Source: Microthyrium microscopicum (taxonomy: Eukaryota). Taken from it: a stretch of 64,000 bases of DNA. The position numbers and the translations under genes are program-made. Location of the stretch: the NCBI GenBank assembly GCA_010405405.1, contig MU004236.1:1928070-1992069 (forward strand). Direction: 5' to 3'. The notes beneath the pieces are model-generated. The model made no database searches. It had not been told where the DNA came from and was given only the letters and a program-made list of their open reading frames with translations. Numbering within the stretch: position 1 is the stretch's first letter; each line of letters begins with the position of its first letter. Shown here in pieces: positions 17,008 through 58,277 of the stretch.

Positions 17008-20000
17008 ATGTCGTCGGCATTGGGCTCTGCTTCCTCCGCCGATGGCGCTCGCGGCCTACGAGCCAAGTTCTCCAAATTCGAAAAGCGGACCTTGAAGAAG
17101 GTCTCCAAACTATTCAAACGCGCAAAATCCTCCAGGGCGCATCAAAAATACACCGAAAAGGTCTCCGATTCAGATCAATCACCCCCAGAGCCGTCACGAC
17201 CACCTCCCCCGATTCCAGACCTAGCCTCTTCTCCCCACGACTCTCTTTCTCCTACCAATGCAGTTGAGACTACCTCGGTCAACTCAGCTGTCGTACCCGT
17301 TTCAACGGCTGGCTTCATTCGGCCCGATGGCTACCCTGTGCGAACTTCCTCGCTAAGACAGACCGAGGGGCCTGTTACGTTATATGATGGACCCATTGAA
17401 ACCAACTACACCGCATTCAAACAGCAGTCGTCTTCCGATCAGCACTATTCTCCAAAGCTGGACCCTCTGATCGAAGAAAACGACGAAGAAGAGTGCTCTG
17501 CGCCTACGCAACCCGCATCTTCACAAGTCGAAGGCGCAGCTGCAACGTTCTCGACAGAAGATGCTTTCAAGCAGTTGTTATTGAGACTGGATATGCTGCA
17601 GGAGCGCGTTGCCGCAATAGACGCCAAGATTGACCGACGCGAATATAAATCGATTGGGACACAGACAGAGGGCAAAGAATTGGCAGAGCCAACACCTCCT
17701 GAATCAGTCAAGGGCGATCAGTCAGAAGGCTCTAATTCCCACAGAGAACAACGCGATGCTTGCGTGGCCCCTCAGAAGGAAGAGACTACGTCTCGATCAG
17801 GCTCCCTAAAACCGAATGAGACATCCAGTTCGGCTCCAGTTGTGTCTTCGAACGCTGCGGTTGTTCTACCAGAGGAAGAAGTTGCGCCCGAAGAGGAGGT
17901 TTCTCAAGAACAGGTCGTTCAAGAACAGCAGGTCGTTCAAGATGAACAGCCTTCTCTTAGTGCTGCGGCGCCTCCTGCAATTGCGCAGTCCTTTTGGAAT
18001 GTTGTTCTAGATCAGCCATCGCCCAAACAAGCGGACAACCCAAAACCAGAACTCCTTGAATATACCCAGCTGCTCAATAACATCGAGGAATTTATGGGCG
18101 AGGAGGTTGCGCCTAAGTTTGCGCCTGGTGATGCAGAAGCCTCTGGATCCAATCCTGGAGATGAAAATGGGCACTTGGAGCAACGAAGCCTACAATTCCG
18201 CCAGTTCCACCCACATGAGCCCCTTCCGCTTGCCTCCGAGGAGCTCAATGGAGTCAGTCTGGCAGGATATGTCTTCCCAGCCAGCCCTTACCCCGTGGTA
18301 CGGGAAGACTTCTCTTCCATGGCGCGCATGGCCACCTCCGCTGAATCCCCTGTGACTGCTGTTCAGCTCCCCCAGGCCACAGCTGTCCAAACTCCGGTCG
18401 TTCCAGCTACGGTCGCGCCTTCCGTCGTCTCGCTGGCGGTTCCTCAAAAACGAAAGGCTCCGTCCCCTCAAACAGCCGAAGAACGCAAAGCAGAGCCTGA
18501 GCGCAAGAAGAAACGTTCTGCTGCGGTTGCTGCGGTTGCGGTCGCTCCTGTTGTGGTCGCTCCTGTTGCGATTGCTCCTGTTGCGATTGCTCCTGTTGCG
18601 ATTGCTCCTGTTGCGGTTGAGCCAGCTGTGGCTGCTCAAGCTCCAGAATCCCCATCGGAGCTCAAAGAACGGGAGGACCGCGAGCGATGGGGAGAAATTC
18701 TGGAATTGAGAAATAGGGACATTGCACCGGTCATATACGATCTTTTCCAAGGTGCTAAGGTCATCCAGATGATTGGTAAACGGGGCAGTTTCCATCGCTG
18801 CTGGATTGTCACATTTGAGAGTCCTACGGAAGGCGAGATGAAAGTCGTCGTTCGCATTTCGATCCGGGCTACACGTGAGCGCTGGACTGGAGAAGACGCT
18901 TGGAAATTGAAGAACGACAGCCGTCAGCTCAAGTGGCTGAGCCCGCGCTTCTCATGTGCTGCCAAAGTCTATGCCTTCAGCACTGACTTTGATAATTCAA
19001 TTGGGCGGCCTTACCAGATTCAAGAGTACAAGGAGGGAATATCTCTTGACCGAGCATGGAATGCTGATCCAAGACACTTCGGCTTCTCAACGACTTTCGC
19101 ATTGCAAAAGCAGTTGATTCTAAACGTGGCTGAGAAGTATAGGGAGCTGAGCCATCTGGGGGATTTCCGTGCTTCTGGTGGTCTCTATTTCAATACAGAC
19201 GACCCCAACGCTCCTCCTGAAGTAGGACCATTTTTTCAGGAAGGTTGCCATGAGCGAAACCTGGAGCCTCGCTTCTCTCCTGGTGCGGCTGACTTCGGGC
19301 AAGTCCTTGCCAGCAAATTTGCGAAAATGCATGAAATTACTTCTACAAAGCCATGCAAACCCGACGAGGCCTTAGTCCGCACTGGAGCTGTTTGGTTGAT
19401 CAAGTCCTTTTTGAAAAAGGTCTACCCATCGCTGACTGATGATGAGGTTGACCGGCAGCGTGAGATGCTCGAGGACGATGAAGAGGAGGTTCGAGTTGAA
19501 TGCTGGCAAGAAGCTCTGGGCCAGATCATCCGCCATTCATCCGACGATACTACACTGCCACGATTTTTGATCAAGCATCCTGATTTCAATTGGCAGAATA
19601 TCTTGATCAACGACAAAGGTGAAGTCGTTGCGTTCATTGATATGGACCAATTAAGCGTTGTTCCAGCGGAGCTTGCTTGCGCAGCGCCCCCGTTTTTCAT
19701 GTACCCGGACTGGAATCCGTGCTACAAACACCTCATATACGACCCTAGCATCAAGCGCTCCTCCCTACAAGATGCTAAGATGAACCGATGGTTCTATGCG
19801 AAGTGCCTTGAGAACCAGCCAACCGCGGGTTCTCAGGACCTATACAAAAAGGGTTGGGCTCATGTTCTGGCTGCGATATGGGAACCCTTGAAAGAAGGGA
19901 ACATGAACTGGCTGATTATGGTAGCCGAAGAGATGCTTGCGCAACGATATTCGGAGTCGAGCGAAAAGAGTATCGAGGCCAAGCTCATGTTTCTTGGTGG

Positions 20001-20130
20001 TAAGTGTCCGGATTTGACTGAGTCGGTTCAAAAAGGAGTCATGGAGGTTATCGGCACATGGATGGAGCAGGAAAATGCAGATTTTGCCGATGGATTTGGG
20101 ACGGTATTGGAGGCTGTATTCAGCACTTGA
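17008..20130 (+). CDS. APH/choline-kinase-like phosphotransferase, paralog 1, with about 560-aa low-complexity N-terminus
   Basis: GSFHRCW loop, VVVR, IGRPYQIQE, catalytic HPDFNWQNILI and FIDMD motifs; 1040 aa. Confidence 0.85.
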   Translation: MSSALGSASSADGARGLRAKFSKFEKRTLKKVSKLFKRAKSSRAHQKYTEKVSDSDQSPPEPSRPPPPIPDLASSPHDSLSPTNAVETTSVNSAVVPVSTAGFIRPDGYPVRTSSLRQTEGPVTLYDGPIETNYTAFKQQSSSDQHYSPKLDPLIEENDEEECSAPTQPASSQVEGAAATFSTEDAFKQLLLRLDMLQERVAAIDAKIDRREYKSIGTQTEGKELAEPTPPESVKGDQSEGSNSHREQRDACVAPQKEETTSRSGSLKPNETSSSAPVVSSNAAVVLPEEEVAPEEEVSQEQVVQEQQVVQDEQPSLSAAAPPAIAQSFWNVVLDQPSPKQADNPKPELLEYTQLLNNIEEFMGEEVAPKFAPGDAEASGSNPGDENGHLEQRSLQFRQFHPHEPLPLASEELNGVSLAGYVFPASPYPVVREDFSSMARMATSAESPVTAVQLPQATAVQTPVVPATVAPSVVSLAVPQKRKAPSPQTAEERKAEPERKKKRSAAVAAVAVAPVVVAPVAIAPVAIAPVAIAPVAVEPAVAAQAPESPSELKEREDRERWGEILELRNRDIAPVIYDLFQGAKVIQMIGKRGSFHRCWIVTFESPTEGEMKVVVRISIRATRERWTGEDAWKLKNDSRQLKWLSPRFSCAAKVYAFSTDFDNSIGRPYQIQEYKEGISLDRAWNADPRHFGFSTTFALQKQLILNVAEKYRELSHLGDFRASGGLYFNTDDPNAPPEVGPFFQEGCHERNLEPRFSPGAADFGQVLASKFAKMHEITSTKPCKPDEALVRTGAVWLIKSFLKKVYPSLTDDEVDRQREMLEDDEEEVRVECWQEALGQIIRHSSDDTTLPRFLIKHPDFNWQNILINDKGEVVAFIDMDQLSVVPAELACAAPPFFMYPDWNPCYKHLIYDPSIKRSSLQDAKMNRWFYAKCLENQPTAGSQDLYKKGWAHVLAAIWEPLKEGNMNWLIMVAEEMLAQRYSESSEKSIEAKLMFLGGKCPDLTESVQKGVMEVIGTWMEQENADFADGFGTVLEAVFST
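18538..18612 (+). repeat. Coding minisatellite, 5 x 15 bp (AVAPV/VVAPV/AIAPV)
   Basis: GCGATTGCTCCTGTT three times exactly, preceded by two variant units. Confidence 0.9.
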
Positions 20131-20619
20131 TTGGGATTGCTTATTGCTATGAGCGTTGGTTTTGCTCATGTTGGAGAATTGTTTACTTGTTTTGAGGAAG
20201 TTATATACCCACTGGAATACTAGCAAGGAGTTGGGCTTTGATTGGGCAGTAGAATATATATTAGACTCTCTTGCAATTAAAACAATTGCAAAATTTCTGG
20301 TTATCTGTGAGTAATGTTTGGCTCGATAATCACAATCCCATGAGGACACTGACAGTTTGTTCAATTTATGCTTCACTAACTGGGCACAAAACATGATATG
20401 GTCAAATCATGATACTATTGAATGCTCTCAGGCTGTTATTAGACAAACATGACAAACAATGGTCAGAGCTGCCTGCAGTGTTGGCTCTACTTGAGACGGA
20501 CGATGTCAACTACAACGAGATTTCGCTGAGTCTGGAAGACTTGCACTAAATTAGCTACATGACTTACATATTTAAGGCGGATTAGATTATAGACTATGGT
20601 TTCCGCTATCATTCGAGTC

Positions 20620-21675
20620 CATCTATTGCCTCGTTGAAGAAATCTTGTCTGGGAGGTCTGTTGGCTGCCCATCACAACATCCATCCAGGAATTTTATTTG
20701 CACCATCGCCAAATGGCACGAGATATTGATAAAGTCTCCAGCCAAGTCGTTTGCCTAATATAGGGATTTGTTGGGTGCGACAGCTTCGGAAACTTCTGAC
20801 TTCCGCAAAAATGCTATGCAAACTGAAGTCGGCCCATTCTACCACGAGGGCATTCATGAGTGGCAAAAGCCGCCATGCTTTACGCCTGGCGGAACCGACT
20901 TCACCAAAGTCCCAAAAGAATAATAAGGACGAATGAACGTACGCATACAGCAAAGCAACACTAACAGAACTATGGCCTCCCGAGGCCGCGTATGTGGGTC
21001 GCTCTTGCTGCTGGAAAAGGTCCTCAAGTACTAGCTCCCCAGTTTCAGCCTCAATACTGCCAGTCTTGAAGCCACCAAAATGATGAAGCCGGGCGCTGAG
21101 GATGTCTTGAGAGTGGAAGATCTCGGCAAATATATTCCACTGCAGAGTAACATGTGACCGGCTCCCGGTTTGGGCTATCAGGTCTTCAATTGATACACCG
21201 GGACATAGGTTGGCAAAACATATTTGTCAACGAGAAGGGCAAAGTTGTCGCGTTTATTGATTGTGATGAGCTGGACGTTCTAGCCGCAGCAATGGGTTAC
21301 GTTGCTCCGCCCATTTTCTTATACGCAAATTGGGTTTGCGGGTATTACCACTTTGTCGACAGTCTTACAATCCTAGAAAGCTCCATCAAGGAGATGAAAG
21401 CCAACCCCAAGCGCCTCAACGTCTTTCTCTTTCAACAGGAAGGAGTGAGCGAGCAGGACCTGCGCCATGCTCGTCTGTCCCATGTCCTAGCTGCAATATG
21501 GGCAGTTCTGAAGAACGAGTTCGCCACAGGCGGTCTGGAGTGGCTTATCATGAAGACTTTGTCTCAATTCCTGCTATTGAGTTCGACTAATGAGGAGAAG
21601 TGTCTGGAGATCTTGCAGACTCAGGAGAGCGTTCTGACAGTGGTCAATGCATGGATGGAATTTGAGAGCCTTTGA
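20620..21675 (+). pseudogene. Pseudogene of the same APH-like kinase family (paralog 2)
   Basis: LVEEILSGRSV; EVGPFYHEGIHE (from 20825) followed by TAA TAA, a later TAG and a frameshift; then HRDIGWQNIFV, FIDCD, SHVLAAIW. N-terminal extension missing. Start approximate. Confidence 0.8.
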
Positions 21676-23062
21676 GCTAGGTTCCGGTGCCTCTGGCATA
21701 ATCGTAGATGAGGATTGAAATTTTGGGAACTATTGGGCGAGCTTACGAATCATGAGAGAGGAATTCAACAAGACAGTTTTGACCATAAGAGATAATGTCA
21801 TTCTATTCAAGGTCAATGAACTACTTGTGGGCAGCTAGAGTAGCATCTCAAATACGACATTAAATACGTTTGATTTCCAGGTCATTTGGAAAGCAAGCAC
21901 AAACATGGCATACGCCCCGTTAAGCTGCGCAATACTAACAGTAAACTTACTATCTATGAACAATGGAGAAACTCCAGAATTCTGGCTCAATATGGTGTCC
22001 CTTATCTCAGAATATTGCCTGCACTTTCCCTGCCAGCGTTCCTGGCTCCGTTGGCTTGCTAAAGACATATGCCCTTTAAGACCCTCAGCTGACCTTTTAA
22101 ATTTGCAATGTACTATGTCGACTACCTAGGTATACTTATAGGATGGGTTGGAATGCAATGAAGTGTAAAGAAATCGGGGCAGATGCTTCGACCTCTGGTT
22201 TGGCAAGACTACCTGCAAAGCCCATTGCATGGTCACTGATCGTTTTCTAGCGACTTAATACAATAGTCTTAATCGAAACTTGACCATCTCAATTCCCAAG
22301 TAGTTATAAAAACCTATTACTTCGTTGTAAGTAAATAAGACAAGTGTCGGCGAAGCTTTGGCTCAGTGATGCGGAAGAATAAAATTCCCTCCGCTATCTG
22401 CGTGAAGAGTCTGGGGTTACTTTTTATGAGCATGCACGCCGACTCAACTTGTATGATCATTCATGAGGAATTGAACTGGGCAGAGAAGCATCAGTAACTT
22501 ATGCAATATCAGTACTTGATTGATCTTTTGATATGATCGAAGGATCTTGGCCAAAGACCTATAGACTGACCCCCATAAAATTGACACCAGTGGAACTACC
22601 AGATAGGCACTTATATATTCTATAGAGAAAGCCACGCCTCTTAGCTGGCTTGTTGAAATAAGTGATTATGCTGGAAATAGAATCGTTATCTCTAGATGCA
22701 ATGCCGCCTTTATCAAAGAATACAAGTCTACACCTACTCGTGATGGCACTGTTACTTGCTTATGCCCCGAATCAGACTCTCTCAAATCAGATACTAGACG
22801 TTCATTCGAGCCGTAATGTGCGCCTCCATGTTTCTCAGCTCGTTTGTTTACATCAATGTCGAGGCCTCTACGCGTGGTCTTCACCTCAAAATTTACGACG
22901 CATTTACGACGCGTTCGCGTGTCAACAGAGAGCTAGAATATTTCACTTCATTCATCCCAACCTAGAGCCTATAATTCCCCGGCTCGTCAATAGATTCTTT
23001 GCTCAGACCTTCTCCACAACATGCACTCCCATCCTCGACTACAGTTCCAACCACCACTCGAA

Positions 23063-25840
23063 ATGCCATCAACTCAAAACCTCGTGCTCAAAGAGCATAG
23101 CACACGCAGTCTTCGCAGCAAGTTCTTGCTTTTTCGAAACAAAGCCTCGAATAAGCTGCGGAAAACATTCAACAAAGGGAAATCGACACTTCAAAACTCT
23201 CAACCACCCACCAAAGATGATCCCAGCAGGCAGCCTCGTTCTTCTCAACCAGGACTGAACATAAGCTACCCTCCTGTCACTTCATGTGACCCACTAGCAC
23301 GCCCATCGGCTATCAGCCAACCTTCAAAACCCTCAAGCTGTCAAAAGACGCACGTTAACGACTCAACTTCTGCTACAACATCTGCGGGACATGCGAAGCA
23401 ATTGGGCTCGACTTCGCCTGATATAAACCAAGTCCAAGCAGTTGTACCATCCAAAGCGCCCCAAGTTGACACCTCTGAGAAGCCAGAAACCCTCTCTGAG
23501 CCTGATTGTGAGATTCAGTCAACAGAAGACCTGAAGACTCCCGGAGAGCCAGCCAGCTCTGTCAAGTCAACAAATCAGGTTAAATCAAAGAGCAGTACCG
23601 AAACGATAAAGCCTCTCACGCCCCCCTGTTCGAATGAAGAACTCAAACAAATACTACTTCAGTTGCAAGTATCTTTCTCATCTAGTGTTCAGAAGAACGC
23701 AGAGCAGATCACAGCCTTAAGGGCGGTTGTTCAACAAAACACAGACCAAATAGGAGCGCTGAAAGCAGATGTTCAGCAGAATACAGAGCGAGTATGGGCT
23801 TTAGAAACAAGCATTGAACAAATCTCAGAGCAAATAGCAACTGTAAAAGCAGAATTTCAGCAGATCCATATAACAACAACAGCAACAATTGAAACCCCTC
23901 CCGAATCAGTCAAGAGCGACCGAGAGAGCGCCCAAGAGGAATCTCCCGAACCTCAGACTGCCATATATAACCCCAAAGTGGCCATTTCAAAGAAGAAGGC
24001 AACAAAGACCTCGCATCATTCCCCTCGGATCGCGATTTCTAACGCGGTCGATATTTTTCACGACCAAGCGACTGCCCCGCGAGATGCTGAAGAGCCTCAT
24101 AATCTTGATTCCTCACCGGGGAAGCCACAGACCGCTTTTACACAAGCTATTACGATTGTATCCGATAAGAGTACAGAGTCTCTACCTTTCGACGAGGAAC
24201 AGAAGAATGAGGATACTCGTCCTGCGAACGGCGCTGTGTCTACAAATTCTCCCTCGAACCCAAAACCTCAGTCTGGTGCGCAGCCTCCTATCGAGACTAC
24301 TTTACCTTGGTCATTCTTACCTGGTCCAATGCTTGAGCAGCAGGATGACGAATCTACATCCGCTGTGAAGACAGCCACATCTGCTGCTACTTCTATCCAA
24401 GCAGTTGATCGTTGGGGGCCCGAGTTTACTCGAAAGAGCATTCCTGACAAGAAAGTAAAGAAGCTCATGAGACAGTTTCTGGGACGGGCGGCTCATAAAC
24501 GTCATATGCATGTCACCCGAGTCAAAGGCAGCTTCCACCAATGTTGGATGGTTGTTTACGACGGAGAATTCGACGTTGAAAAATTGATTGTTAGAAGCTC
24601 CATTCGCGCGACAAAACTGCGCTGGACCAAGAACGATGATTGGTATTGGAATAATCAGTCTCGTATGCTGGAGTACTTTGATGAAAGCAATGTCGACTGG
24701 ACACCTCAACTACTTGAGTCCAGCACAAGCTTTGACAATCCCATTGGTCGTCCTTATATGATCCAATCGTTTTTGCATGGGATGAGCCTGTGTAAGGCCT
24801 GGAATATGAAGCCACGTCGCATTCCTAATGGGCTGACTCAAGAGAAATGGCACGATAAACTACTGAAAAATCTGGCCGCTTTCTCCATAAAGTTCGGCAA
24901 CACGATTAAAGCCAGCGCCGCAGGCGGTCTTATATTTCTGGATCCTGCGGAAGGCCAAGAGACCCCTAGACTACGGATCGGCCCTTTCTTCCATGAGGGA
25001 GATCATACAGAGAACCGCGAGCCTCGATTTACTCCTGGAGCTCGGGACTTCGACATGATTCTGGCCGATAAGGTTGCACGAATGATGATTAAGATAGACC
25101 AGGAGCCGGCAAATGATAACTCCATATGTTATGGAGGCGCACTTTGGCTCTTGATTCAAGTCCTCAGCAAGGTTTTCCCTACCTTCAATATGAGTCTTGC
25201 TAGTCATGCTTTTGAAGATATGCAGAAGCCAGACTATGACCATATCAAAGACAGCGAGGATGTGGAAAATCACATCATTACCATGGCTCACCATGCCCCA
25301 GTATCTGGCCGAGCATGTTATAAATTGAAGCATCCAGACTTCAATTGGCAAAACATAATTGTCGATGAGGATGGGAATATTGTCGCAGTAATTGACCTGG
25401 ACCTGTTAACTGTAATGCCACCCTCCTTTGGGTACGCGGTACCTCCATACTTTTTGTGGCCTGAATGGCATCCATGGTATCAGAATCAGGTCGATAGTCC
25501 AAGCATTGCACGCGGATCACTGGAAGCCATCAAGGAGGATCGGAGAGCCTACATTGAGCACATGTTCGACGAATCCGGGGACGACAAGAGCGACCTGGCT
25601 CACGCTCGCATCTCCCATATTCTGGGTGCCATTTGGGAGCCTCTGAGCCGTGAGAACCCGGAATGGTTGGTTTGGGTTGCCAAGAAGGTTTTGATTGAGT
25701 CTTCTAAGAGCGTGGGTCTAAATATCAACACGAAGACCACTCTAGTCGACCTAAGCGATGAGGAATCACCTTTTCTGGCCCAAGAACAATCACAAACTTG
25801 GACCCGGGTTTCCCACTGGATGGATATGGAAGGCCAATAG
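23063..25840 (+). CDS. APH-like phosphotransferase, paralog 3, with coiled-coil N-terminal region
   Basis: GSFHQCW, IGRPYMIQ, IGPFFHEG, HPDFNWQNIIV, VIDLD. Start is either 23021 or 23063. Confidence 0.85.
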   Translation: MPSTQNLVLKEHSTRSLRSKFLLFRNKASNKLRKTFNKGKSTLQNSQPPTKDDPSRQPRSSQPGLNISYPPVTSCDPLARPSAISQPSKPSSCQKTHVNDSTSATTSAGHAKQLGSTSPDINQVQAVVPSKAPQVDTSEKPETLSEPDCEIQSTEDLKTPGEPASSVKSTNQVKSKSSTETIKPLTPPCSNEELKQILLQLQVSFSSSVQKNAEQITALRAVVQQNTDQIGALKADVQQNTERVWALETSIEQISEQIATVKAEFQQIHITTTATIETPPESVKSDRESAQEESPEPQTAIYNPKVAISKKKATKTSHHSPRIAISNAVDIFHDQATAPRDAEEPHNLDSSPGKPQTAFTQAITIVSDKSTESLPFDEEQKNEDTRPANGAVSTNSPSNPKPQSGAQPPIETTLPWSFLPGPMLEQQDDESTSAVKTATSAATSIQAVDRWGPEFTRKSIPDKKVKKLMRQFLGRAAHKRHMHVTRVKGSFHQCWMVVYDGEFDVEKLIVRSSIRATKLRWTKNDDWYWNNQSRMLEYFDESNVDWTPQLLESSTSFDNPIGRPYMIQSFLHGMSLCKAWNMKPRRIPNGLTQEKWHDKLLKNLAAFSIKFGNTIKASAAGGLIFLDPAEGQETPRLRIGPFFHEGDHTENREPRFTPGARDFDMILADKVARMMIKIDQEPANDNSICYGGALWLLIQVLSKVFPTFNMSLASHAFEDMQKPDYDHIKDSEDVENHIITMAHHAPVSGRACYKLKHPDFNWQNIIVDEDGNIVAVIDLDLLTVMPPSFGYAVPPYFLWPEWHPWYQNQVDSPSIARGSLEAIKEDRRAYIEHMFDESGDDKSDLAHARISHILGAIWEPLSRENPEWLVWVAKKVLIESSKSVGLNINTKTTLVDLSDEESPFLAQEQSQTWTRVSHWMDMEGQ
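23687..23854 (+). repeat. Degenerate 4 x 42-bp coding repeat (14-aa double heptad, coiled coil)
   Basis: VQKNAEQITALRAV / VQQNTDQIGALKAD / VQQNTERVWALETS / IEQISEQIATVKAE. Confidence 0.75.
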
Positions 25841-26396
25841 TTGGAGTTCCAGGCTCTCGTCACTGTGAGCCATGCCGCGCCTGTGCTTTGTACGATTAAG
25901 TAACTTATTACATTTCAAGTTAATGTTTTTGAATTTTACGGCACAAGATTGGGAGCACGATACTCACCTAAGAACTTAGGTAGGCATGGGCTACTCCTGT
26001 TGCTGGACTGTTGGCATGTTTAGGAAGTTGTATACCCTTCTGAGGATTGTTGAAGTTTAGATTCAAAGCGAATGGAATATTGGGCATCAGTCAGTCCTAG
26101 ACAAGCGCGCTTAATCCCTATCTGCTTATGCTGTCCCCGAATTTCGGCGTCTTCACCAATTTGAAGTACTTCATACAAGTCCATACAGGGAAATTGCAGC
26201 TGCGCATCGCTCAATATTGATCGCATTAGTATATACTAGAAGTGACCGCACCTTACTATTGAGGTAGATTTCGGTGATAACCTGGATCCGTTTTCATTCT
26301 ACCTGAAAGCTTCCGTATTTGATAATCTCACCTCGAAACATTAGACGCGTTAGTCGGTCACTTGAAATCTCTCGGCATTCACCTTGAGCCTCCATA

Positions 26397-26432
26397 TTCA
26401 TTGGGACATCTGACTTCATTGGGACATCTGAC
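26397..26432. repeat. Exact 18-bp tandem duplication upstream of paralog 4
   Basis: TTCATTGGGACATCTGAC twice. Confidence 0.9.
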
Positions 26433-26600
26433 TTTTGATCAACAAAGCCTTTCTTTCCCAGCTTTCTCCACGACTATCTCCATTCACACAGCATCTTCCT
26501 TTCGAAACGCTACTCAGGCAGAGATCAAGTCAATAACAGAGAGCAAGTGTGCAGGAAATCGACCGTCTGCCCTTGCACCCAAATAAAACTCTACAACTAG

Positions 26601-28469
26601 ATGGAGCAATCTCGTTTTGATGCTGATCTAATGGGTGAGGCCTTGCTCATGCGAGAAATCGCAGCAACTCTGGAGATAGACATTAAACGTGTCTCCAAGG
26701 CCATTACTCCCAAGGGGCAATCGACCAACATGAACACTACTCAGACTCAGTCGTTGTCTATACACCAGTCAACGACTTCTCTGAAGTCAGCAGGCCATAA
26801 GTCAGAGCGCGCACTCGACCCTTCAGCCGCGGCAATTCGCAAGCAAGAGAACAAAGAGTTTCCGGAACAGATAAAATCCCAGCTCGAGAACGAGCATAAG
26901 GAAAAGCTTCCTCCACCTAAAATGCCTGCGAAGCAAGGTCAGAAGCAGCCTGCTGCAGAATCGAGTTGTAAAGACATCCCCAATGGCCCCAAACAACCAA
27001 TCAAAGTCCCAGTAGACGACCCAGAAGAGATAGCTCACAAAAAGCGTTGGGGTGAGATCCTGGAAATCGAAGACAAACAAGTGATTGATCTCTTGTTCAA
27101 AGTCTTTTACTCGAAAGCTGTGATCACAGACAAGCGCCTGGGGGGTTTCAATCGAGTCTTCATAGCAGTGGTTATGCGACCATTTACTGCTCCAATTAAA
27201 GTTGCTGTGCGAATCAATATCCGAGCAACGAACGAAAGATGGACTAAACTAGATGCATTCAAGCTTCAACAGCAAGTTCGAACATGTAACTGGATACACA
27301 AAAAGTACAATCTTGCTCCCAAGGTCTGGTCGCACGATACTGGTTTCAAGAATAGCCTCAAGCGACCCTACATGATCATGAATTGTGTCGATGGACGTCC
27401 ACTGAACTATGAGTGGCATGCTCCTCTCGGTGCTTACGGCAAAAAGAAATTTCAAACCTTGGAAAAGAAGCAAGCACATATCATGAAGAGTGTTGCCCAG
27501 GCGGTCGCCAAATTGAGCGCGAAAACCTTCAATGCTGGAGGTACACTCTACTTTCCAAGCGATGATGCGACCAAAGACCCTCAAGTTGGTTCTTACTTCC
27601 ATGAAGGGAACCACGAGTCGGATTCCCCACCGTTCTTTACGCCTGCTTACTATTCGTGGACTGATGTTTTGGCGGACAATTGGGCTCGAATGAAATTGAA
27701 GCAATCGCGAAATAGCTCACCAGTACAACAGCTGAAAACTGATGGAGCTCTATGGGTAGTTGAAAAAGTCTTGCACACAATCTGGCCAGGCTTCAATGAA
27801 GCGTGCATTCACCGCCTTCGGAAGACATTATCAAGCAATCCACATCGATTCCAAACCTCGGAAGAGGTCATGAAAACACTACATCCAGCTACCAACGATC
27901 CCGACAGCGGACAATTTCATATCAAACATATGGATCTGGGCTACCAAAATATCATGATTGATCACCTTGGTAACGTAACCCAATTCATTGATTGGGATCT
28001 GATCAATACTGTCAATGAGCATGTTTGTTGTACTGCTTACCCAACTTGGCTTTCAGCAAATTGGAACTTCTACTACAAGGACCGGGTCGGCGACGGCCAC
28101 CCACACTTTCCTAAGAACTCCAAAGTCCACCTTGAGAGATACCGAGAATAGTACGCTCAGTCACTCCTTGGCGTGAAAGGCGAGGATAGCTCGGCTCGCT
28201 TGATTCGAGGATCCCATGTTCTAGGCAGCATAGTAGAACATGTAAGCTTCCATGATATTTCCTCATTGGTATGGCTTGCTGGACAGATACTATGCCACGC
28301 GTCGCTGAATATCGATGCTTCCAGCGACGCAGCAACCCAGCTTTTGATACTGATAGGCCATGAAGAAAGCACGAATCAGTCGGCTACGAAACAGAAAGTT
28401 ATGATGCAGTTCCAGAAATGGTGGAATGATCTATTGAAGCCAAAGAATATCCCCCCGGAGCTAGATTGA
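26601..28469 (+). CDS. APH-like phosphotransferase, paralog 4, interrupted by one in-frame TAG (28149-28151); 622 aa if decoded
   Basis: GGFNRVF, RPYMIM, VGSYFHEG, HMDLGYQNIMI, FIDWD. After YRE* the same frame continues YAQSL...SHVLGSI...LVWLAGQIL...KWWND, matching the C-termini of the paralogs. Confidence 0.75.
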
Positions 28470-30354
28470 AAACAGCTTTTGGCGTATCTGTTGCTTTTCG
28501 TACGCTCACAAACGAGAGAGAAATTATGCAAGCACAGATTCAGAAGTAGTCTGTTCTTGAGAAGAACTAATCGTCCTGCCTCCACACGTTCAAGCTACAA
28601 ATTTCAGACACTACGTTGTCCTTTGAGGAGTATCCGACTAGGTCTACATAGAGTGGAAATGAGAAGACTCAAATGTTTGCAGAGTGGTTCGCCCGAAGTT
28701 ATGAATAGGTTAGGAACACTAGAGGAAGGAATAAAAGTAAATGACAGAATCGTAGCACACAAGTTTCTTGCCCAAAAAAAAAACCATGTTCACGTCCAAG
28801 AGGGATATGTATCTTACCATAGTGTGAGCCGGTTGTAAGCCCATGCCGATAGCAATAAGTGTCTTGAAGCAGAGGATTAGTGACTATCTAGATCAAAACT
28901 AGAAGAGTAAAGTCGTCCAACCGTAAGCAGACATCATTGTCGGTCGTTCCATATTTCAAAAGACTATCATGATAAAGAGTAGATGTATTGTCTATTAATA
29001 GCAACACAAGCCTACATTTGTATTAGGTCTACATGATGAGAATCCAAGATGAAGTCAGCAGCTATGTGGTGTTTATGATATTGCTTCTATGAGGTAAAAT
29101 TGAAAATACTTTGGTGAGTTAGCTTTGCTTCCTGGACCTGATACACATCTTCTAAACAGAAAAATGTAGGTTTTAACCTTGTCCGAAGCCATTAAGCTAA
29201 AAAGATTAAACTTCTAAATATCAAAAAAGAATTGTGATACAGGCCCGAATCGATCGTGTTGAATGTGGAGAGGTGAGTTGTATTCCCTAGACACTCAATC
29301 AAGTGATGCGCCAAACTCGTCTCGGAAACTTGTACCAGCACTACCACCGCGAGGTGATGATTGGTACATCGGATTATGGATCAGAGTGAGAACTCCCCCA
29401 CGTAAAACCTGCTGGATAATCAAAAACTGACAACATTGTGAATATATACAGCGCATTATGCTAGTTCTGATTTCATAATGTACAACCCAAAAACTTCCAG
29501 CTGAAACCAAGCCAAGAGATAATCAAGCATATACTGTTGGTAGGTATTCTGACACTTAGAGCTATGTAGATGCTGGAATTCGATGATTACTATCGTCAGC
29601 TTCAAAATCGCCGTTCATCTTGTGAACTATGCGGTTTAAGTCGATAGATAAAACCTTTGGGAAAGATGATGATACTAGCACAAGGAGAGGAAATCAACCG
29701 TTTGTCCACTTCAAGGGCATGTAGTAGGAAGGAACAATGGCGATTGCTAATTACTTCCACGGCCTTGCTACAACAGCTCTCGTCCATCTCCCCGTCTACC
29801 ATCTGCCAGTGTTTTCATTAAGTCGCATCCGATTCGACACCTAGCGTACGACCAGCCTCCATCAAGCCTCCGTTTTCCATGGCTCAAGCGCTCTGAAGCT
29901 AACAACGTTGAGGCTGCCGACAACATGATTCATTTCACGGCCACAGCCGTCCCACTGTTGAGGTTCAGTATTGCATCTCCGGAGAGAGCCATTCCTACTA
30001 TCGTCCATTTCCGTGGTGGATTGTGTAACTCCCACACTGCATTTTCAGTCTCCCTGGTGAGATAGATGTCGACTGCGAAATGTTAGACAAAAAGGCAATA
30101 CTCGACACCAAAACACTAAAAAGTTGAACCATACTAGCAGTGATTAAATGGTTCAATGGAGCCGAAGGACGCCGAAGCATGTGCCCCCGAACCGGATTGA
30201 AGATAGCTGGACGGTGAGTAATGCAATGAGAATTTTTTAGAGTATATACCAATACGACCCCAGTAGGTATCAATGCTATCACCATCTATGAATCCCCATC
30301 ATTACAGCAACTGAATTAACCAACCAGCTACAAGCCTCCAGGTACAAACTTCAT

Positions 30355-32393
30355 CTAATCCTGCAGCACATTTTTCAGCGCCTTCTGGAAATCGAAGATA
30401 CCCATTCCAGTTACAGCATCCCACCCTTTAGTCGCGTTCCAGAAAGCACCGGGAATGATGGCCGAGCCATTGGTGGTTTTGCCATTTTGGTGATTAGTAC
30501 CATCACAGCCACGGGCAGCACCCTTGGTGATATCGACCAAGAACTCTTCTCCTTGGTCGTAGAGCCAGGGGTTGATGAAACCGAGCGTGGGCATGCCTTT
30601 TCGAAGACGGGCATCGTTGAGTAGACCGAGGATCGCGGCGACGACGGGTGATGCGGCTGAGGTTCCTCCACTTCCGGATAATATCCCTCCGTAGACGACC
30701 TTGTACACTGGATAGAGGGAATGGGCTGATACATCCGGGAATCCACGGCCGTTAGGATTGAAGTATCCGCCATCAAGGAAGGCACCGACTTGTTCACTTG
30801 GTAGCTCCCCAAACAGGTAATCGCGAACATGTCGTTTCTGGTATCGTGGTTGAGCGAAGTAGTAGGAGAAGCCGCCAGAGCTATCACGCCAGGCGATTTC
30901 GGGGCTAACACCTTCAGTACCGCCAATACTTGTCACCCAGGGGCAGGTACTAGGAAATTCGGGCAAAAATGTAGCATCATTGGATCCGTCATTCTTTCGG
31001 CAGTACGAACCTATGCCGGTGTCACCAGAAGACTCCAGGACCGAAATACCACGAAGTCCCATCATGGCAATCATGAGGCAAGTTCGAGCAGCATAACGAT
31101 AGGGAACAGTCTGTTCAGGCTCGCCATAAGAGTTGGAGATAACTTGAGGAAGTTCCGAATTCTTTCGGGAGAGGAGATATTGATAGTAGGGAACGTAGGG
31201 TTCGTTAGTATTCTCACTTGGAGTTGTTATTTCCAAATCTGGCATGAAGGGAGGTTTGCCAGCAGTGAGATATTCAAACACGGAGATGTTTGAGGGTGAT
31301 AGCACTCCAATAATGTTTTGGGCCTTGTTAGATTAGCATAAATTCATCAAATGACGAGAAGGGATCTTACGTCCAAACCTGCTTCGCCAGATAATTCGGC
31401 CGCCACGTTGGGATCCTGGTTGTTGACGGCATTATTTACGAATATTTTAGTCCAGTTTTTGTTGTTCAGTCTGAAATATTTCTCGTACAGGAAAACGTCT
31501 TCGTAATTCGCAGATTGGTTGAGGAAACTGCTAAATCCCACTCGACTCTTTGACGGTCCGGAAGTGCTATAATTCCCGATATTGTACATTTGCTTGAGAC
31601 AGCTGGGTCCTACGCCATTGTTACAAGAAGGATCGACGAAAAAAGGGCCTTTTCCAGTAAGAGCCTCTGGAGGTGCATTTCCTTCCCCAAAGCCAGATGG
31701 AGTATTTGGTGCAGGTGGGGGAGCCTGGCGGCGGTACAATGACCCAACGTGCTGCTTGCGATATGGGGCATCTGACTGGGTTCGGCTAGACTGGCGACGG
31801 ACTGATCTGGCGTGTGCCTTGTCTTCAGGATAGTAGGTAGGTGTGAATGCTTCTGTTTTGCCAAAGAAAGTGGTCGGATGGATGATGTCGATATGGTGAA
31901 ATACATCCTGCGGAACAGAATACTCCATGGTGCGGATCTTGCTGACTCCACGGCGTTTGTATTGTTTGAAGTTGGCGTTGAGGATACGGTTGGCGGTTTC
32001 CACTGTGGTTGTAAAGGAGACCCAGGTATTGTCAGAGTGGATTTTCGTGACGCCCTCAGCCTTGAGCCAGTTCATTACGGCAGTATTGGCTTCCTTGCTG
32101 GGCTGGACCAAGTGATTGACATCATCACGATCCATCCATTTTCCATAGCTCTTTGATTTGGGATTTGAAGTGTCTAAAAGCTTGGATATCATGGTATCTG
32201 TGTTTTGGAGAGTAAGACCGATCTGCAAGGTAATTTCTTCCTGGGGTACGAGTACATGAGATTGTGCTGCTGCCCAGCCCTGGGCTGCGAGAGAAGACTT
32301 TTGAACTGACTCTACCATTTTCATGTTGGTCGCTGCATTGCTCAAGGAGGCCAAAGTGAGCGCCAGCAGCGCCACTGAGCCTCGGAGAACCAT
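30355..32393 (-). CDS. Secreted tripeptidyl-peptidase / sedolisin (peptidase S53)
   Basis: Exons 32393-31371 and 31323-30355 (47-nt intron). Signal peptide, pro-domain, catalytic EAGLD, SSGDTG, GGTSAASP, GWDAVTG. Confidence 0.93.
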
Positions 32394-34011
32394 TGTTTTG
32401 ATCTAACTTGGTAAGAATTGCTATTGAATGGGAAAGTAAATAACAGGAAGGTAAGTAATGAAAGTGGTATGAAAAATAGCCGATGGTTAGAGGCCAAAGA
32501 ATGGAATAGCCCAGATACTGAATAATCTGGTGCTTGATGTTGATGTTGTTTTCCAAGAAGCGAGTGAGGTTGGAGCCAACAAACAAGATCCGAAATTAGG
32601 CTGTAGCTTCCAATCAAGGTTGACCAAGGTTGACCAGTACTCCCGCCTCACAAGAGTGGCGGCAATAGATGGAAGGAAAGAACGAGTGGTAGTGAAGTAG
32701 CAACGGAAATCGCGAATTGCAAAGATCAGACTTGAGGCAGGAATGTTCGGCTGAACCTGAAGCTTGGTCTCACACCTTAACTGGAAACACCGATGCAAAG
32801 TTAGAACTCTGAACCAAAAAATCCACAGACAAACAACCACAGTAGTAGCGCGACCACTACTTTAAGCACTCGATATAGCGCGGAGAAGCTAACCGGATGA
32901 CAGCTTGGTCCTGATTCCTACCAAATATAAACATCCTGTTCATAGACAAGAACAGAAAAAGGCGGTTGAGCTGTGCCACCTGCTCCGGGATACACTCCCG
33001 GCGCCGTTAGGGAACAAGCTGCGGGCAAACGAGCCTAATTGCATTCTAACTTCTAGGTCCGCGGTCTTGAGCATATATCGTCAATCAATGCGCGGGAAAT
33101 AGCCAATGGGGGTTTTCCTGTGCTATGGACATAGAGTGAATAGGAGCCTCCGAGTGCCCTATGTCGGGTTGACTGCGACATGGTTCATATTGCTAATGCC
33201 GCTTGGAGCATTTTTGTATCCTAAACCTTCGTGTGTCGTAGCGGAGGGATCCAGTAATTGATCAATCGCATTCCCCAAGTGCAGAGCGATTGGCATCATC
33301 TTGGCGGGTAATCTCGATGCGTGTGACATAGTTCGTTACCGCTTTGATGGGATCTAGGCGCATCTTGGGTAAAATCGCCTAGAGGCCCAGATATTAGGAT
33401 TATATCACTGGTGAGGATTCAGTACGACATAATTTTAACTCATTATAGCTCCTTGCAATGGTGATCTGGCGAGATCTACAGCTCAATCGTTCTGCACCCT
33501 AGACTGATTTGTTGAGTTGTCCATTGGAATTGTGCGGTGTAACCCGGAGCCTCGGTCTGATTGGGAGCCCTGAGAACTTAAAACATTGGCTCTCAAAACC
33601 AGCATTCCTAAGTAGTCAGAGACAACATAAGTACATGCCAGCTGCCGTAGCATGTTCAGTTCTGTAAGACGCTTACATCTAAATCAAGATTTTGTTGCTT
33701 GACTGTGCTAGGTGAGTCGATGGTTTCAGTGGAGGCTGCGTCTTGATGAGATCCAACAATGCCATCCTCTCTGATTGCGGAATATAATCAGTGCTGTGCG
33801 TTGGTTGTATCTGGGGTCAAGCTCACACCCTGATCTCCTAAACATGATGATCAGCCGCAAATTAGCAAATATCAGTCTCTCTGCGAGAACAGCCAGAACG
33901 TCAAAAAGGTGCGAAATGATGCTGAGCGCTAAATTTCTCTATTCGCACTACAGGAACTGTATTGACAAGGGAGGCCTATCATGTATCCGCCATTCGTTTG
34001 AGGGCGCGAGC

Positions 34012-57161: not shown

Positions 57162-58277
57162 TTTTAACGACTCGACGATAATGATATTATGATAACCCTT
57201 GGAGGCTTGAACTCAGACTGGAATATCTTACTTTCTCAAGTATGATCAAATGTTCGATTCGGATATAATGGTTAGCTTAGCGCACATAGTCACATGAATA
57301 TTATTTTATTCACTTGTTCTATGCACATCGATAAGAAGATGAGACTTCTCTTGCCTCATTGGCATTCCCAGAAGCTACGCTAATATTTGATAGGAGAGCT
57401 GACCCTTTTCAAATCCCACTGGCTTTGAACTGACAACTGCAAGTCATTAGTCCATCGGCGCCACCATTTCAAGTCGAATCAACCTATGGAAAGAATCTCT
57501 ACGGAAGAAACAAAACGCCATTGATATTCTGCCAATTGTCTCTACCAACTCTAACCCTCCAATAGGCAGCAAACTTGCAATTACTATCATGCTGCCTTCT
57601 AAACCCAATTCAGCTACCATCAAGGACGCATACAGTATAAACCACCAACGCCGACCTAGACAATTTTTGTTCATAAAGACTCCCAGTTTGCTAACCCGGG
57701 AACCATATCATCAATTAGCTTAACAACTGAATATAGTGCCGCGCGTCCGTTCTGCCATTTCGACATTCCTGTCTGAATAGAGAAACGAATCTACAGCGCG
57801 GAAGCATCAAGTTCGACGGCTGCCACTAGCCTTTCGAATACAAGTTCGCGTGTTTTGCCAGAGATAGTTTGATATCCAGCGGCTGCAATCACATCTCCAA
57901 AATTTGTTCTCGTAGGACTTCTAATCAACTCTTAAGCTTCGATAGGAAAAAATATCAGTTTATACTTTTCCAGCTTAAGAAGGCTAGCGGGTAGCGGGAC
58001 GGGCCGGGACGTGAGCGGGCCGCTTAAACCTTCCCAAAAGGATTAGGCACCATGTTTTCACTTTCTCGACTTCGACTCTATCCTGCCGGATCGCCGCTTT
58101 GCCAGACATCAGCAATGTCGATATTATGCGTGCGTCATATAGAGAAAGAATCAGTCTGAATGATTCGTCACCCAAGCGTTAGGTTATCCAAAAAACAGGC
58201 AGATCTATTTCAACGCCGTGCCACATAAAGCTCCCTAATAAAAGAACCTCCAAAAAATACCAATGTTATGCGGGTAT

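Follow-up and report, generated by a model that had tools for sequence, protein, structure and literature searches.

Four divergent aminoglycoside phosphotransferase-type kinase genes in different functional states form a tandem array in the genome of Microthyrium microscopicum

The stretch of DNA considered here, referred to throughout as the window, comprises 64,000 nucleotides of the Microthyrium microscopicum contig MU004236.1 (positions 1,928,070 to 1,992,069 of the forward strand; assembly GCA_010405405.1). Between positions 17008 and 28469 its plus strand carries four co-oriented paralogs, c1, c2, c3 and c4, which encode kinases of the aminoglycoside phosphotransferase (APH) type. An earlier note on this DNA had described them as a tandem array of intronless, APH-like kinases, two of them intact, one decayed and one split by a single TAG, and the open reading frames (ORFs), the stop positions and the translations of the four copies bear out this description, including their number, strand and positions. 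When compared by tblastn, c1 matches c3 with 35% identity over 441 columns (E 6e-76), c4 with 30% identity over 474 columns (E 5e-62) in a high-scoring segment pair that runs through the TAG, and c2 with an E value of 5e-31; c3 and c4 share 28% identity over 457 columns (E 3e-42). These similarities are far above chance. Expressed as identity to c1, the values are 35% for c3, 31% for c4 and 39% for the tail of c2. A six-frame scan of the whole window with a hidden Markov model recovered c1 to c4 only, and no further remnant at an E value below 1.

Two members of the array are intact, and each consists of one open frame for which no intron is needed. The first, c1 (17008..20130, +), encodes 1040 amino acids, is identical to the database model P0001 and aligns with the family profile at residues 558-1023; its kinase domain, the modelled part of the protein, spans 481 amino acids (18685..20127, +) and contains the motifs HPDFNWQN and IDMD. 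The second, c3 (23021..25840, +), encodes 939 amino acids, equals in length the database model P0002, in which the family profile covers residues 464-939, and has its kinase domain at 24425-25837 on the same strand. The kinase domains of both proteins are preceded by long N-terminal extensions, about 560 residues of low complexity in c1 and about 470 residues in c3, which are rich in Ser, Pro, Ala, Gln and Glu. That of c1 contains a 15-nt tandem repeat of about 6.8 copies (18518..18637, +), found by Tandem Repeats Finder and a repeat search, which encodes pentapeptides of the APVAI type. The two extensions cannot be aligned with each other, and no mutual similarity was detectable by tblastn. 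A basic segment similar to the N-terminus of the paralog P0004 stands at the start of each (E 1.5e-4; residues 2-53 in the case of c3), and a strongly basic N-terminus (net charge of at least +5 in the first 45 residues) is also found in 38 of 143 relatives. In c3, the basic N-terminus is followed by a heptad-like, Gln-rich stretch, for which the coiled-coil-type Pfam matches are weak (E 0.19-0.97). The long and variable N-termini that the earlier note had pointed to are thus a property of c1 and c3, but not of c4, in which about 140 residues precede the kinase domain.

The second member of the array, c2, is a decayed pseudogene (approximately 20702-21675, +) that is visible as tblastn segments in frames 2 and 1 and comprises no more than the C-terminal two thirds of a kinase domain; it therefore retains the C-lobe, and the six-frame scan of the window found no remnant of its N-lobe. 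Five in-frame stops interrupt its frame-2 part (at 20756, 20921, 20924, 21032 and 21155), and the frame changes near position 21170. The final 174 codons (21151-21675) are open and have kept the motifs HRDIGWQN and IDCD. A public gene model, P0007 (177 amino acids; 21035-21675), makes a small gene out of this remnant by splicing out the HRD codons of the catalytic loop, and is likely a mis-annotated pseudogene.

The fourth member, c4 (26601..28469, +), combines its short N-terminus with a kinase domain that is interrupted by one in-frame TAG at 28149..28151 (context GAA TAG TAC). Its frame consists of 516 open codons, the TAG and a further 105 in-frame codons, and its final stop aligns with the C-termini of the paralogs. 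When the paralogs are aligned, the position of the TAG is occupied by Trp in P0005 and P0011, by Phe in c1 and by Ala in c3 and P0006, and it falls into a gap of the P0004 model. A transition from TGG to TAG is the simplest history of this site, because P0005, which carries Trp, is the outgroup of the pair formed by c4 and P0004. The protein retains 27 of 35 family-conserved positions, compared with 25-29 of 36 in the intact paralogs, and behind the TAG it is 28.8% identical to P0005, a stretch in which P0004 and P0005 share 25.3%; hence the tail of c4 is no more diverged than that of the intact P0004. Therefore, the lesion is recent in comparison with the duplications, unless translation of the tail continues.

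The database model of c4, P0003, removes the TAG through a 174-nt in-frame intron (28151-28324) that begins with GTACGC at the G of the TAG. We rejected this intron as real, since the segment spliced out corresponds to the conserved SHVLGSI helices, which align in all paralogs, and it is most likely an annotation device. One sequencing run, whose RNA origin is no more than a guess, yielded a single contig of 296 nt (28314-28609) that shows no differences from the genomic sequence and leaves the TAG outside; its overlap with the putative 3' splice site of P0003 amounts to 11 nt, which is too short to judge splicing.

All four copies contain exact matches to the catalytic motif HxDxxxQN (HPDFNWQN in c1 and c3, HRDIGWQN in c2 and HMDLGYQN in c4) and to the metal-binding motif ID(M/C/L/W)D (IDMD in c1, IDCD in c2, IDLD in c3 and IDWD in c4), just as previously described. 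The additional motifs that had been proposed as private to the array require a more differentiated assessment. The motif IRATxxRWTxxD occurs exactly in the three long copies c1, c3 and c4, and its IRAT part is restricted to the M. microscopicum clade, the family consensus being IRVPxxG. The tripeptide RWG, which is likewise found in c1, c3 and c4, recurs in the distant family members P0009 and P0010 and is consequently not private. The patterns GxFxHEGxHE and SHVLxxI hold as consensus patterns, but individual copies depart from them by about one residue each; examples are GPFFQEGCHE and AHVLAAI in c1, and SHILGAI in c3.

The family assignment of these proteins has to be argued from several lines of evidence. 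Whole-protein scores against PF01636 are 18.5 bits for c1, 17.3 for c2, 20.2 for c3 and 14.8 for c4, and the kinase domain of c1 alone reaches 22.6 bits, at a gathering score of 23.2 bits for this family. Because every copy misses the gathering score, membership in PF01636 rests on the profile, the relatives and the fold. A profile built from the window copies was searched against 1.84 billion representative proteins and retrieved 1495 proteins at E values of up to 1e-3 and 717 at up to 1e-10; among the aligned relatives, 77 of 79 match PF01636 at E values of up to 0.01 (best 2.1e-18), and the nearest Atlas clusters are APH families of Ascomycota.

An AlphaFold2 model of the c1 kinase domain, built with the family alignment, was obtained with high confidence (predicted local distance difference test score, pLDDT, 89.7; predicted template modelling score, pTM, 0.90). 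When it was compared with known structures by Foldseek, 228 of the best 500 matches had E values of at most 0.001, and all 44 rows among the matches listed were APH-fold kinases, with APH(2'') and APH(4) enzymes at the top (E 2e-7). In a comparison with representative structures by VIA-align, the best 46 rows were of the APH/choline-kinase type, and nearly all of them were small-molecule enzymes: the Z scores were 18.2 for 3dxp, 17.7 for the macrolide 2'-phosphotransferase MPH-E, 17.1 for a type II homoserine kinase, 17.0 for APH(2'')-IVa and 16.7 for 25-hydroxysteroid kinase (by structure, 17.7 for 7w15, 17.0 for 4dbx and 16.4 for 3tyk). Taken together, the profile, the relatives and the predicted fold support the earlier assignment of the proteins as APH-like, and they identify c1 to c4 as divergent APH-type kinases whose modelled domain has a bilobal, protein-kinase-like fold.

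The residues on which catalysis depends in such enzymes have been kept throughout. The catalytic Asp and Asn of HxDxxxQN and the aspartates of IDxD are present in all eight copies known from this species, the dead ones included, and in an alignment of 141 relatives the catalytic Asp column is conserved to 96%, the Asn column to 99% and the metal-binding Asp column to 98%. The catalytic His, Asp and Asn residues align with those of the structures 3dxp and 9o56, and the IDxD aspartate aligns with the sequence DWE of both. At strand beta-3, where a basic residue of APH enzymes contacts the phosphates of ATP, the family consensus viRvPatG stands opposite vLRRPPLG of 9o56, in a profile match that is weak (i-Evalue 1.9); the window copies carry an Arg in this stretch, which reads VRISIRAT, VRSSIRAT or VRINIRAT.

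The closest relatives of the array are found in the same species. Outside the window copies themselves, the best profile matches (388 to 148 bits) are P0004, P0005, P0006 and P0011, all of them hypothetical proteins recorded from M. microscopicum, and their genes are absent from the 64-kb window. Their accession numbers end in 702, 704, 707 and 709, a run that points to a further tandem group located on the scaffold of the array. The next-best proteins, from Venturia, Glonium, Verruconis, a Pleopsidium metagenome-assembled genome and others, reach at most 178 bits, and the scores drop from 304 to 178 bits at this boundary. A word-index search of an index of 5.8 billion proteins with the c1 kinase domain gave no match among proteins of 261-833 amino acids and returned c1 itself only among those of 572-1820 amino acids; the relatives emerged only in the exhaustive profile search.

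Phylogenetic analysis places these proteins in one clade. In a tree built from 148 domain rows, c1, c3 and c4 group together with P0004, P0005, P0006 and P0011 with a support of 100 in the Shimodaira-Hasegawa-like approximate likelihood ratio test (SH-aLRT), and in a 31-row tree that includes the tail of c2, all eight copies form one clade (SH-aLRT 100), the stem of which measures 1.23 changes per site. Within it, c2 groups with c1 and c3 (SH-aLRT 99), and a second subclade has the structure (P0005,(c4,P0004)) (SH-aLRT 99), in which c4 is the sister of P0004 with 49% identity. Since the paralog proteins are only 27-49% identical, synonymous sites are saturated. The earlier note had viewed the genes as old duplicates in birth-and-death evolution and had named conserved one-to-one orthologs among the findings that would speak against its reading. 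The identity of the other window copies to c1 (31-39%), the clade of eight on its long stem and the different functional states of the copies sustain this view, and no one-to-one orthologs were found elsewhere, the next-best database proteins scoring far lower. Because there is one clade of eight copies that has no such orthologs in other organisms, birth and death is a fair description of its history.

Several database entries encountered among the relatives deserve mention in their own right. The P0011 model (340 amino acids) lacks the whole N-lobe, and the P0004 model (945 amino acids) is gapped exactly at the site of the c4 TAG; either model may conceal additional lesions in these outside copies. 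The Venturia inaequalis protein P0008 (1301 amino acids) contains two complete kinase units of the family within one predicted protein, a composition explained either by the fusion of tandem duplicates into a single gene or by the merging of two gene models. The 90% cluster of the Zymoseptoria protein P0019 also holds adjacent or fused models labelled as major facilitator superfamily (MFS) transporters, among them a 1011-amino-acid protein of Z. brevis, and this hints at a kinase gene located beside a transporter gene in these fungi.

We consider it likely that the locus as a whole is the product of a tandem, lineage-specific expansion within a divergent subfamily of fungal APH-type kinases (PF01636). 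In this scenario, the array would have grown by local duplication, c1, c2 and c3 forming one subclade, and the closest relatives of c4 would be additional copies located in this genome but beyond the window. The intact proteins c1 and c3 are most likely active, ATP- or GTP-dependent phosphotransferases, to judge from their retained catalytic motifs and predicted fold. Their target would be a hydroxyl group of a small molecule, be it a metabolite, a xenobiotic or an antibiotic-like compound, and less likely a peptide or a protein. Their long, disordered and fast-changing N-termini probably serve localisation or interactions with partners and not catalysis. The c2 sequence is a dead remnant, and c4 appears to have been recently inactivated by the single TGG-to-TAG (Trp-to-stop) transition and would represent a young pseudogene or a null allele.

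Several points weigh against this proposal and should be kept in mind. The scores of all window copies against PF01636 stay below the gathering score (14.8-22.6 versus 23.2 bits). The trees were obtained in quick IQ-TREE searches, and the origin of the outside paralogs from the same genome is deduced from database records, including the species named there. The window stems from a single assembly, so that the TAG of c4 may reflect a sequencing error or a polymorphism between strains. N-termini of 470-560 disordered residues with a heptad-like stretch would be unusual for detoxifying enzymes. Finally, the structural matches include APH-fold enzymes with protein or peptide substrates, namely YihE/SrkA (Z 16.6), fructosamine-3-kinases (FN3K; 14.1), LxmK (13.4) and TvaE (10.2), and because of their presence in the fold list a small-molecule substrate must be regarded as probable rather than established.

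These latter enzymes also speak for a different interpretation, in which proteins or peptides are the substrates of the APH-like domains and are recruited, in a signalling or scaffolding context, by the long, disordered, coiled-coil-like N-termini. The recurrence of long N-terminal extensions with a basic start elsewhere in the family would fit such a role. The highest structural matches, however, are mostly small-molecule enzymes (3dxp and the macrolide, aminoglycoside, homoserine and steroid kinases), the match to the protein kinase family Pkinase is marginal (E 0.047, for c4), and the evidence for a coiled coil consists solely of the weak Pfam matches mentioned above. On this balance, we regard a protein- or peptide-kinase function as unlikely.

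A role of the kinases in a conflict system, either in non-self recognition, in meiotic drive (spore killing) and the resistance to it, or in toxin inactivation, had been put forward in the earlier note; in such a system, an arms race would drive the turnover of the genes. The species-restricted clade with its long stem, its old, divergent paralogs and two or more dead members could be read in this way, as could the hypervariable N-termini and the presence of antibiotic-inactivating APHs among the closest folds; furthermore, PF01636 genes of Coccidioides show a raised ratio of nonsynonymous to synonymous polymorphism (PN/PS) together with copy-number variation, as stated in the available part of PMC9782707. 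However, a Pfam scan of the four copies and of 17 large ORFs outside the array detected no HET, NLR, nuclease or toxin domains. The proteins encoded by these 17 ORFs include a DnaJ protein, a Cdc20-type WD40 protein, a WD40 protein with a Sec16-type domain, a prenyltransferase alpha subunit, a dual-specificity phosphatase, a sedolisin-type protease and an ankyrin protein, and seven of the 17 have no Pfam match. Likewise, no link between an aminoglycoside phosphotransferase and spore killing was found in the literature searched. Because PF01636 is already known to be among the fungal families most prone to expansion, turnover alone does not single out a conflict function, and the inactivation of toxic small molecules is in any case compatible with a lineage-specific expansion of APH-type kinases, since antibiotic-inactivating APHs are among the closest folds. 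None of the features observed ties the array to meiotic drive, toxin inactivation or non-self recognition, turnover of this kind is usual for PF01636 in fungi, and we consider a conflict system quite unlikely.

It had further been suggested that the TAG locks c4 to the sexual stage. In this case c4 would be alive, its UAG being turned into a Trp codon by A-to-I editing of the mRNA, or read through, in a stage-specific manner, for instance during sexual development, and one member of a fast-evolving kinase array would be stage-locked. The TAG does lie exactly at the position of the Trp residues of P0005 and P0011, and edited premature stops of the TAG type in Fusarium mostly derive from TGG, which makes such a site their commonest origin (PMC10776026, as far as its available part goes). 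The 105 codons past the TAG are open, reach the C-terminus of the family and are not unusually diverged, the conserved positions of c4 are retained to the extent given above, and the A of the TAG is located within a 9-nt loop closed by 3 bp in the minimum-energy fold. All of these features, the Trp site, the open tail, the conserved positions and the loop, are expected equally from a recent nonsense mutation.

Other observations speak against decoding of the c4 stop codon. According to the available part of PMC10776026, restorative A-to-I editing arose in the ancestor of the Sordariomycetes and independently in the Pezizomycetes, and these are the only classes from which that text reports it; the paralog records name a Dothideomycete, and no report of A-to-I editing in Dothideomycetes was found in the portion of PMC13123824 that was available. 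The RNA fold of the 61 nt around the TAG (-9.6, against a mean of -10.7 for shuffled sequences; z 0.42) is no better than chance, since 132 of 200 shuffles fold at least as stably, and the stem of the centroid structure is only 3 bp long. The downstream context of the c4 stop, UAC-GCU, is unlike the CAR-YYA type known from leaky stop codons. The 64-kb window contains no tRNA gene, and hence no suppressor tRNA. We therefore regard conditional decoding of c4 as very improbable, and as more improbable still the specific proposition that a UAG at an ancestral Trp site is decoded at one life stage in a Dothideomycete, that is, outside the classes in which restorative editing is known.

If the lineage-specific expansion of APH-type kinases is accepted as the explanation of the locus, it is an ordinary gene-family expansion within a family already known to expand and to turn over in fungi. 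It adds a documented case in which a single species has eight copies, no fewer than two of which are dead, and it provides, through the high-confidence model of the kinase domain and the intact genes c1 and c3, starting points for substrate screening. Were the c4 TAG nevertheless decoded, stage-specific correction of stop codons would extend past the fungal classes in which it is known, an outcome that the evidence makes unlikely.

Two further features of the window were recorded. Directly downstream, the array is followed on the opposite strand by a gene for a sedolisin-type protease (30355-32402, -), which combines a Pro-kumamolisin activation domain (E 5e-38) with an S8/S53 catalytic part. 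Between positions 58001 and 62000, an AT-rich block with a GC content of 0.25-0.26, as compared with 0.43-0.53 elsewhere, has the look of a repeat island degraded by repeat-induced point mutation (RIP).

The known systems with which the array can be compared include the tandem arrays of insect ecdysteroid kinase-like genes (EcKL; PF02958). These genes encode APH-related small-molecule kinases in fast-turning tandem arrays, for which a role in detoxification has been proposed; as they belong to a separate Pfam family and to another kingdom, they serve as an analogy for the working of such an array only. A second group are the bacterial APH-fold kinases, represented by 3dxp (Reut_A1007), the macrolide 2'-phosphotransferases, APH(2'')-IVa, APH(4)-Ia and 25-hydroxysteroid kinase, which share with the c1 domain the bilobal fold (Z 16-18, 259-319 aligned residues, root mean square deviation 3.7-4.3), the HxDxxxxN catalytic loop and the subsequent metal-binding Asp. 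They differ from it in sequence (9-13% identity) and in size, the fungal domain being about 180 residues longer (481 versus approximately 300 amino acids) and containing extra helices.

With respect to c4, the edited pseudogenes with premature stop codons (PSC pseudogenes) of Fusarium graminearum offer a parallel, since there, too, a single premature TAG at a Trp site interrupts an otherwise intact frame (available part of PMC10776026). The parallel ends with the host class, which in the case of c4 lies outside the range of editing known from that source, and with the hairpin around the TAG, which is not significant.

The expansions of PF01636 in other fungi are a further close counterpart. 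In the parts of these studies that were available, 33-47 copies are counted in outgroup fungi such as Neurospora and Aspergillus and 98-258 in most Onygenales (PMC4751544), copy-number variation is described in Coccidioides (PMC9782707), and the family is enriched in some lifestyles of Dothideomycetes (PMC7082219); read together, these partial sources indicate that tandem expansion accompanied by pseudogenes is usual for PF01636 in fungi. The expansions in the Onygenales and in Coccidioides resemble the window copies in fold, in catalytic motifs and in their lineage-specific character. The window copies are set apart by scores below the gathering threshold, by their single-species clade, by IRAT in place of IRVPxxG and, in two of them, by disordered N-termini of 470-560 amino acids. 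The earlier statement that the array is not a described system hence remains appropriate at the level of the subfamily, for which no characterised member was found, but it does not extend to the family as a whole, which is recognised as expansion-prone in fungi and within which the four M. microscopicum genes find their place.

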